The translations under genes were made by a program, and so were the position numbers. A DNA stretch of 4,087 nucleotides from IMG/VR virus record IMGVR_UViG_2609459833_000014, positions 1-4,087 of that record. One strand, written 5' to 3'. Below, in pieces: positions 2,529 through 3,085 of the stretch (its first letter is position 1; every line of letters begins with the position of its first letter). The notes beneath the pieces were generated by a model, which saw only the letters and a program-made list of their open reading frames with translations, had not been told where the DNA came from and searched no databases. This DNA is from a virus (taxonomy: Duplodnaviria; Heunggongvirae; Uroviricota; Caudoviricetes).

Positions 2529-2723
2529 ATGACATTCATCAACCAGTTAATGCTGTACTTCTGTACGGTGGTCTGTGTGTTGTATCTTCTTTCAGGTGGA
2601 TACAGGGCAGTACGCGACTTCTGGCGCAGACAGATTGACAAAAGGGCCGCTGAGAAAATCAGCGCCACTCAGTCAGCCGGAGCAAAAACAGAAGCCCCAC
2701 TCATTCCGGAACAACCTTCTTAA
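2529..2723 (+). CDS. Hypothetical small membrane protein (64 aa; one N-terminal TM helix, basic C-terminal tail)
   Basis: ORF MTFINQLMLYFCTVVCVLYLLSGG-YRAVRDFWRRQIDKRAAEK... with hydrophobic stretch aa ~6-23 followed by Arg/Lys-rich segment. Stop codon immediately upstream in frame. SD is weak. Same strand and spacing as the flanking late genes. No family recognised. Confidence 0.45.
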   Translation: MTFINQLMLYFCTVVCVLYLLSGGYRAVRDFWRRQIDKRAAEKISATQSAGAKTEAPLIPEQPS

Positions 2724-2748
2724 TAACCCCTTTCAACGAGAAAATCTC

Positions 2749-3039
2749 ATGACAGATATAAAACAACTGGTCACTACTGAGGCAGTGAAGGAAGTCATTC
2801 GCTCTGAAGAAGTCAGAAGCGTCCTGAAACAAAAACTCCGCCAGAATCTGGAAGAGCGTCTTGATGCAGAAGTGGATTCAATTCTGGATGAATTGCTTGG
2901 TGCACAGCCGGAACCATCCCCGGAACTGCTTCCGGAACCACAGGCGGAAGATGTCACCACGGAAAATGGTGATATTCAGCCGGAGTCACCGGTGACGGAT
3001 ATGACAGACACACAACCCGAACCGGGCACAATGCTGTAA
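2749..3039 (+). CDS. Hypothetical acidic protein (96 aa; N-terminal predicted helical region, Pro/Glu-rich low-complexity C-terminal tail)
   Basis: The track shows a 154-aa ORF from 2575. I place the start at ATG 2749 (MTDIKQLVTTEAVKEV...), which has GAG ~7 nt upstream and does not overlap the preceding ORF. Many Asp/Glu against few Lys/Arg; repeated PEP/QPE motifs. Followed directly by a strong intrinsic terminator. No family recognised. Confidence 0.5.
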   Translation: MTDIKQLVTTEAVKEVIRSEEVRSVLKQKLRQNLEERLDAEVDSILDELLGAQPEPSPELLPEPQAEDVTTENGDIQPESPVTDMTDTQPEPGTML

Positions 3040-3049
3040 CGGCGGGGCA

Positions 3050-3085
3050 GGGCCATCAGTAAAACACTGATGGCCTTTTTTATTT
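3050..3085 (+). terminator. Rho-independent terminator (9-bp perfect stem ggccatcag/ctgatggcc, 7-nt loop, then ttttttattt)
   Basis: Seen directly at 3051..3059 / 3067..3075 with T-run 3076..3085; located 11 nt after the stop of the acidic ORF and ~30 nt before the holin start. Confidence 0.75.

Follow-up and report, generated by a model that had tools for sequence, protein, structure and literature searches.

In a stretch of 4,087 nucleotides (nt) from a Caudoviricetes record of IMG/VR (IMGVR_UViG_2609459833_000014, positions 1 to 4,087; hereafter the window), two small open reading frames (ORFs) lie between a gene for a sialate O-acetylesterase of the NanS-p type and the holin gene S. We show that these two genes, ORF1 of the DUF1378 family and ORF2 of the DUF826 family, form a mobile unit of three genes together with the esterase gene, and that the pair is associated with the esterase and not with the lysis genes. 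The pair represents already catalogued, widespread and uncharacterised accessory genes and not a new kind of system. As to its role, we favour on balance, and with modest confidence, the explanation that it is a late-expressed, membrane-tethered and dispensable accessory pair of the esterase block.

Family membership and genomic contexts of the pair

ORF1 matched the Pfam family DUF1378 (PF07125) with 122.6 bits (cutoff 25, E 7e-36), its residues 1-59 aligning to the entire profile (1-59 of 59). ORF2 matched DUF826 (PF05696) with 85.8 bits (cutoff 25, E 2e-24), its residues 1-57 corresponding to positions 1-59 of the 75 in the profile. The two proteins fall into PHROG 494 and PHROG 311, respectively, both families without an assigned function. 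ORF1 shares 98% identity with NCBI entries called 'DUF1378 family protein' and does not differ from this family in any respect that we could see, being a typical member; ORF2 is 96-99% identical to entries named 'DUF826 domain-containing protein'. The Prokaryotic Genome Annotation Pipeline (PGAP) likewise annotates the pair as DUF1378 and DUF826. A preliminary description of the window, made from its sequence, had recognised neither protein; this has to be corrected, as both families are annotated in hundreds of genomes.

A megablast search detected the pair in 784 of 5426 complete Escherichia coli genomes (14%), with a median of two and a maximum of seven copies per genome. All close relatives of both ORFs in a collection of 5.8 billion proteins originate from Escherichia or Shigella and already bear the names DUF1378 or DUF826. 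The DUF826 family is small, with 53 representatives at E<=1e-3 in an exhaustive profile search among 1.84 billion proteins that also included distant members. A study on the Q-S region of phages encoding Shiga toxin (Stx) 2a noted ORFs of DUF826 and DUF1378 in the interval from nanS-p to S, giving no function for them (PMC10462455). Our literature search found no functional study of DUF1378 or DUF826, and locus-tag queries gave unrelated papers only. Neither a sequence search with ORF2 nor profile searches with both proteins retrieved a match among PDB sequences, and fold searches of PDB and BFVD with ORF2 gave no match either. Furthermore, Pfam contained nothing above noise for ORF2 beyond DUF826, PADLOC and NCBIfam had no match for the pair, and Rfam had no family at or near it. 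The profile and structure-based searches proposed in the preliminary description thus assigned both proteins to Pfam and PHROG families and yielded no structural relative of ORF2.

To describe the surroundings of the pair, we distinguish three genomic contexts. The first is that of the window, which we read from its sequence and Pfam matches as the late region of a lambdoid prophage. In such E. coli prophages the order is esterase, an antisense small RNA (sRNA)-like unit, DUF1378, DUF826, a terminator and the lysis genes S, R and Rz. DUF1378 was found immediately upstream of DUF826 in 80 of 80 lambdoid loci seeded with DUF826, and DUF826 was the next gene after DUF1378 in all 69 DUF1378-seeded loci with enough downstream sequence. 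The esterase lay upstream of DUF1378 in 72 of the 75 loci with enough sequence. The flanking genes were present wherever a contig of a lambdoid locus extended to them, and neither the most divergent members nor decaying prophages deviated from this order. In degraded prophage remnants, both ORFs were intact beside a fragmented esterase gene.

The second context is found in Mu-like prophages, where a Gin-type invertase is followed by a SASA esterase (lacking DUF1737), DUF1378, DUF826, Com and often a C5 methylase. We identified the trio in 33 such loci, near the right end of the Mu-like prophages and with no lysis genes nearby; Mu-like prophages with the trio are represented by L156 (594-3246) and L157-L189. 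Nearly every Mu-like locus whose upstream sequence was long enough contained the esterase, and identities ranged from 55 to 100% for the esterase and from 57 to 100% for DUF1378. One Mu-like prophage carrying the trio was inserted inside an Stx1a phage record. A profile search of genome contigs with the Mu-like DUF826 group gave no match.

The third context comprises lambdoid prophages of the Salmonella/Pantoea type, in which lambda-type S, R and Rz/Rz1 are followed by a stand-alone DUF826 gene and the terminase genes. These DUF826 proteins are approximately 60 amino acids in length and score 69 bits against Pfam, and their loci contain neither DUF1378 nor the esterase. At the stand-alone loci (L092-L154, L155, which is Fels-1, and L192-L194) the DUF826 tails are short and non-acidic; in Fels-1 only an unannotated DUF826 remnant is left.

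Other prophages lack the pair altogether. In PP2 of E2348/69, a strain of enteropathogenic E. coli (EPEC), and in phage YYZ-2008, the esterase is followed by a class II holin, and the interval between the two genes lacks both DUF1378 and DUF826; the K-12 prophages Qin and DLP12 contain neither the esterase nor the pair. The presence of the genes thus varies among similar phages, and the block is carried by both lambdoid and Mu-like backbones, as would be expected of a moron. A terminator follows the pair directly, though it belongs to the whole esterase block (see below). A crude consensus scan detected no plus-strand sigma-70-like site before ORF1 or before the esterase, the start of which is abutted by the end of an IS1 element. 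Taken together, the genes are conserved and variably present, which bears out the accessory, moron-like slot in the late operon that the preliminary description had proposed between an esterase and a holin; Pfam confirmed the esterase, and the holin is of the P21 type. What moves is a unit of three genes, esterase-DUF1378-DUF826.

Architecture, selection and gene models of ORF1 and ORF2

The coordinates, lengths, 25-nt gap and shared direction of the two ORFs in the preliminary description were exact (Table 1). ORF1 contains a single hydrophobic segment, with a Kyte-Doolittle maximum of 2.02 over 19 residues starting at residue 3, and its residues 26-64 have an isoelectric point (pI) of 10.25. 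The AlphaFold model consists of one helix spanning residues 2-51. ORF1 is organised into an N-terminal transmembrane (TM) helix, a conserved SGGY motif, a basic helix and a short flexible tail, in agreement with the single N-terminal TM helix and basic tail noticed before.

We estimated dN/dS, the ratio of nonsynonymous to synonymous substitution rates, by pooled pairwise comparison of 65 unique sequence variants from 80 IMG/VR loci and compared all six frames. The frame of ORF1 gave 0.19, while the others were above 1 except for the reverse frame that shares its wobble positions. Records of PhiR12 phages place a minus-strand ORF over DUF1378 and name DUF826 'head completion protein'. We rejected this minus-strand ORF, as its constraint is no better than the artefact expected from shared wobble positions. 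The K-12 protein YbcW was considered as a DUF1378 member and set aside: RefSeq names it only 'uncharacterized protein YbcW', and its gene lies elsewhere in DLP12.

ORF2 is strongly acidic, with a pI of 4.05, a net charge of -15.5 and nine prolines, and its tail carries motifs of the QPEP/PESP type. AlphaFold models helices at residues 2-18 and 20-51 with block-mean confidence (pLDDT) values of up to 95. Residues 59-93 have pLDDT values below 50 and are modelled as disordered. The acidic protein with a helical N-terminus and a Pro/Glu-rich tail of the preliminary description is therefore well founded. Residues 57-96 account for -10.5 of the total charge of -15.5, i.e. about two thirds, and the protein ends in ...PEPGTML. 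Residues 1-56 form a conserved helical N-domain with a dN/dS of 0.17, the lowest of the six frames; here, too, the others exceeded 1 apart from the reverse frame with shared wobble positions. The acidic tail is the least constrained part, with values of 0.37-0.54 and a variable length among homologues; these values indicate relaxed and not positive selection, and we rejected diversifying selection on the tail. The analysis of synteny and selection suggested in the preliminary description thus came out in favour of the pair: the two genes co-occur in every informative locus of the DUF826-seeded lambdoid and the DUF1378-seeded sets, and both are under purifying selection.

The tail of DUF826 differs between partnered and stand-alone proteins. 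DUF826 proteins with a DUF1378 partner have tails of 27-49 amino acids with a median net charge of -9, and 48 of 50 unique ones terminate in a hydrophobic dipeptide (TML, MML, TMM or MMM ends). Stand-alone DUF826 proteins have a median tail of 8 amino acids, and only 1 of 29 possesses such an end. A PEPxT(M/I/T)L terminus is common to distant partnered members. As far as can be judged from the sequences, these differences point to a link of the tail and its tip to either DUF1378 or the esterase.

Many database models of DUF826 are 128-154 amino acids long, since they begin at in-frame upstream starts that overlap the tail of DUF1378 (for example, L0106 of phage 933W with 148 amino acids). The overlapping extension has a dN/dS of 2.07 in the frame of ORF2 as opposed to 0.30 in the frame of ORF1. 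Moreover, a Shine-Dalgarno sequence, AAGGAG(G), precedes the DUF826 ATG by 6-7 nt in Mu-like and divergent homologues. We therefore regard the 96-residue model starting at 2749 as the supported one. Public annotations are thus inconsistent (2575-3039 in the window, L083 3680-4126, which is 933W L0106, and L001 6117-6251), as they include such unsupported N-terminal extensions of DUF826 over DUF1378 as well as the PhiR12 entries mentioned above.

We also considered a programmed +1 frameshift at GAC-AAA-AGG that would fuse ORF1 to ORF2. In its favour, 64 of 65 variants have the frame of ORF2 open over 62-70 upstream codons, 64 of 65 keep the GAC-AAA-AGG site, and fused proteins exist in the databases (P0063, P0034). 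Against it stand the dN/dS values of the extension given above. Furthermore, the Mu-like and other divergent groups have an open frame of no more than 5-46 codons and do not contain the slippery site, and a strong Shine-Dalgarno sequence precedes their ORF2. We thus rejected the frameshift. Another candidate that did not hold up was K-12 YdfR, considered as a DUF826 protein and hence as a homologue of ORF2. By translation and Pfam, YdfR belongs to DUF1327, and its gene lies between essQ and rrrQ. It resembles ORF2 in being a small prophage protein from the neighbourhood of lysis genes, but is unrelated to it. YdfR of the Qin prophage is reported to bind the N-terminal half of RNase E (PMC13232886).

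The terminator, the antisense unit and the flanking genes

The terminator behind ORF2 forms a stem of 12 bp (3049-3077) with six G-C pairs, followed by TTTTTTATTT. It folds with an energy of -19.4 kcal/mol (z = -4.13), and none of 200 shuffled sequences folded as well. The terminator is kept in 9 of 9 sequence variants, with energies from -15 to -22 kcal/mol. A similar hairpin with a T-run lies 40-65 nt upstream of S in EPEC PP2 and YYZ-2008, which have the esterase and lack the pair, but is not present upstream of essQ (Qin) and essD (DLP12) in the K-12 prophages without the esterase. It is hence the esterase block, and not just the pair, that this terminator closes. The strong terminator that the preliminary description assigned to a two-gene cassette is thus genuine, but not specific to the pair.

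In lambdoid phages, unmodified RNA polymerase would stop at such a terminator before the lysis genes, and polymerase modified by the antiterminator Q would read through. Only antiterminated polymerase would thus be expected to proceed past the terminator into S and R. Given that the lambdoid block lies in the Q-dependent late operon, its products would be made late after induction. We infer that the pair is expressed late and in a Q-dependent manner, which fits the observation that nanS-p rises by 1-2.4 logs only upon induction with mitomycin C (PMC10462455). The crude consensus scan found no plus-strand sigma-70-like promoter between the esterase and ORF1.

The interval between the esterase and ORF1 contains a unit of approximately 86 nt on the minus strand (2479-2394), located directly after the esterase stop and consisting of a 5' hairpin and a terminator (stem 2430-2424/2408-2402, U8 at 2401-2394). 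A conserved TTGACA -35 box precedes it at 2510-2505 on the same strand. The hairpin and U-run are kept across approximately 30 variants, several of which have different stem sequences. In L156, the Mu-like locus that we read in detail, an antisense hairpin with a U-run is likewise present after the esterase stop.

The unit shares its position, its strand opposite to the esterase and its stem-loop with a terminal U tract with the sRNAs PasA and PasC (EcOnc51/52), for which coordinates and orientation of PasA (PMC8550237, table S6) and the synteny esterase-PasA/C-holin (bioRxiv 10.64898/2026.05.13.724894) have been reported. The loci resemble each other in the site between esterase and holin, in an antisense unit whose terminator has a GCCAG/CTGGC stem and a U-run, and in a terminator that ends the block before S. 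They differ in that the PasA loci found by BLAST (EPEC PP2, YYZ-2008 and phage 434) lack DUF1378 and DUF826, whereas one antisense unit and two ORFs fill the interval in the window. A covariance model of the unit (R1) matched 933W and L087 at E values of approximately 1e-24 to 1e-26, but the esterase-proximal module of EPEC PP2 only at E 0.31, and PasA itself remained unmatched. An alignment with the PasA/PasC region had the terminator stem and a few short blocks in common. By position and strand, the unit would be the counterpart of PasA/PasC, a correspondence of place and orientation rather than an established homology. EPEC E2348/69 PP2 (L084 2466-2913) and YYZ-2008 (L195) possess tandem antisense modules, a PasC-like one beside the esterase and then PasA, and in both a plus-strand terminator like that of the window follows the tandem modules.

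The region of the window matches 306 phage records. Escherichia phage PhiR12_3 is 99.5% identical to it, and 933W and other Stx phages are approximately 80% identical. The features of the window are compiled in Table 1. The IS1 insertion severs this copy of the esterase block from its usual upstream late-region sequence, which is the normal site of PasD/AsxR-type sRNAs.

Table 1 Features identified in the window, in order of position.
Feature	Position	Strand	Remarks
IS1 end with insA	insA 65-340	minus	Start of the window lies within a copy of IS1
IS1 terminal inverted repeat	ends 394		19 nt upstream of the esterase start codon
NanS-p-type sialate O-acetylesterase gene	414-2387	+	Pfam DUF1737, SASA and DUF6645; first gene of the block
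Antisense sRNA-like unit	2394-2479	minus	Between the esterase stop and ORF1
ORF1, DUF1378 family	2529-2723	+	64 amino acids; Pfam PF07125; phrog_494
ORF2, DUF826	2749-3039	+	96 amino acids; Pfam PF05696; phrog_311
Intrinsic terminator	3049-3085	+	Closes the esterase-DUF1378-DUF826 block; ~40 nt before the start of the S holin
P21-type holin (S), dual start	3116-3331		Downstream of the terminator
Phage lysozyme	3336-3869		Downstream of the holin

The holin shows a Met1/Met4 dual-start arrangement, and the N-terminus of the lysozyme is weakly hydrophobic and rich in Ala and Gly, as is typical of signal-arrest-release (SAR) endolysins. Judging from their sequences, the two resemble a pair of pinholin and SAR endolysin of the type known from phage 21. 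A strong terminator-like hairpin with a 14-bp stem (3960-3992) lies 3' of the lysozyme gene; as it is preceded by an A-run and followed by a T-run, it could act on both strands. Past this hairpin starts a small ORF that is cut by the end of the window (4026-4087, MEKYKRILLRLTMKNGLELK...). A closely similar ORF at locus L092 (2480-2662) encodes a small TM protein. The region after the lysozyme gene may thus be a further accessory slot, located between R and Rz.

Possible roles of the pair

In the explanation that we favour, ORF1 and ORF2 are genuine genes and make up the distal end, present in some prophages only, of a mobile accessory block or moron. This block starts with the NanS-p-type esterase gene, contains the antisense sRNA-like unit and ends at the terminator before S. 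ORF1 would be a bitopic inner-membrane protein, oriented N-out/C-in according to the positive-inside rule, with its basic helix in the cytoplasm. ORF2 would be cytoplasmic, composed of the helical N-domain and a disordered acidic tail ending in two hydrophobic residues. The charges of the two proteins are complementary, with a pI of 10.25 for residues 26-64 of ORF1 and a charge of -10.5 for the tail of ORF2. The basic cytoplasmic helix of DUF1378 may hold the acidic tail or the C-terminal tip of DUF826 at the membrane, which would leave the helical N-domain of DUF826 free to bind some partner. The pair would accordingly act as a dispensable accessory factor, being neither a core lysis protein nor a DNA mimic.

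Several observations weigh against this explanation. DUF826 occurs alone in the Salmonella/Pantoea-type prophages, and an anchor provided by DUF1378 is therefore not needed for the core function of DUF826. Few clades underlie the correlation between tail and partner, which may hence reflect only one or two evolutionary events. The linkage to the esterase could also result from hitch-hiking on one recombination block and not from a shared function. As a separate observation on the copy in the window, the IS1 end 19 nt before nanS-p may alter its expression.

An alternative is that the pair forms a lysis-timing module that modulates the P21-type pinholin and SAR endolysin, e.g. with ORF2 binding the basic tail of S and ORF1 serving as a holin-like partner or decoy. 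We consider this unlikely, though well short of negligible. The start of S follows ORF2 at a distance of approximately 80 nt in every lambdoid locus whose contig extends there, and stand-alone DUF826 lies directly after Rz/Rz1, bordering the lysis cassette. ORF1 moreover resembles one half of a holin, in that it combines a single TM helix with a basic tail, and a small TM protein with a charged C-terminal domain is what one would look for in a holin or antiholin; the C-terminal tail of S has a pI of 10.27. An obligate linkage to an endolysin or lysis cassette is nevertheless missing: in the 33 Mu-like loci the trio lies between the invertase and com with no lysis gene nearby, and the class II holin-lysozyme cassettes of EPEC PP2 and YYZ-2008, as well as the lysis genes of K-12 Qin and DLP12, do without the pair. 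A terminator separates the pair from S, and Pfam gave no holin or antiholin match. Stand-alone DUF826 adjoins a lambda-type holin (PF05106) and not a pinholin, so that DUF826 displays no specificity for one type of holin. The borders of lysis cassettes are, in addition, known accessory slots, occupied by stx and nanS-p before S and by bor after Rz, which also argues against a role in lysis timing. A parallel would be the antiholins of phage T4, of which RIII is cytoplasmic and RI is membrane-associated or periplasmic. As in T4, the pair consists of small phage accessory proteins, one associated with the membrane and one cytoplasmic, that could potentially tune a holin. It differs from RI/RIII in having no sequence or fold relation to them, in the terminator before S and in its occurrence away from lysis genes.

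The pair might instead help the esterase itself, by acting on the membrane localisation, release or stability of NanS-p. We judge this to be rather improbable. Nearly all DUF1378 genes lie downstream of a SASA esterase, and they do so in two phage backbones that are not related to each other. Only esterase-linked forms of DUF826 have the long acidic tail and the hydrophobic tip, and we noticed no obvious signal peptide at the N-terminus of the esterase when reading its translation. Many esterase prophages, however, lack the pair, and a single recombination block bounded by a terminator suffices to explain the linkage. Recombinant NanS-p esterases were, furthermore, reportedly found to be active alone by Feuerbaum et al. 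in 2018, which we count against such a helper.

Similarly doubtful is a bolder form of the explanation that we favour, according to which the pair would be a new membrane-tethered late device of esterase prophages. DUF1378 would anchor DUF826 through its tail and tip, and the helical N-domain would act at the inner membrane on the timing or route of cargo release (NanS-p, and Shiga toxin in Stx phages) or on a component of the host envelope or defence.

We attach little probability to the idea that the pair is expressed from the prophage as a factor of lysogenic conversion or superinfection exclusion, altering the envelope or blocking incoming phage. The accessory slot with its variable presence among related prophages would suit such a factor, as would ORF1 as a small inner-membrane protein, the up to seven copies per genome and the survival of both ORFs beside a fragmented esterase in degraded remnants. 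On the other hand, the scan of the plus strand between the esterase and ORF1 provided no sigma-70-like promoter candidate; the conserved TTGACA of this interval is in the opposite orientation and suits the antisense sRNA-like unit. The neighbouring nanS-p is late and induction-dependent (PMC10462455), and PADLOC returned no match.

Finally, that ORF2 is an Ocr/ArdA-like DNA mimic with an anti-restriction or anti-defence function, as the preliminary description had considered, is very improbable: the protein is indeed small and very acidic (net charge -15.5), but approximately two thirds of the charge lie in a tail that is modelled with pLDDT values below 50 and would not form a rigid surface, this tail is of variable length and under less constraint than the rest, the gene belongs to the late operon and not to an early or leading region, a membrane protein is the partner to which ORF2 is coupled, and searches of Pfam, PDB sequences and, by Foldseek, PDB and BFVD gave no similarity to a known mimic.

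The pair matters beyond the window, as many prophages of pathogenic E. coli carry it in the interval that separates the Shiga-toxin/esterase region from the lysis genes. The practical outcome consists of corrected gene models, with ORF1 being a real gene and ORF2 starting at its own ATG, and of the definition of a mobile unit of three genes. Moreover, the presence of the membrane partner goes along with that of the acidic tail and of the hydrophobic C-terminus in DUF826, which provides a directly testable link between the two proteins. If the pair influenced the timing of lysis or the release of cargo, it would have a bearing on the release of toxin.

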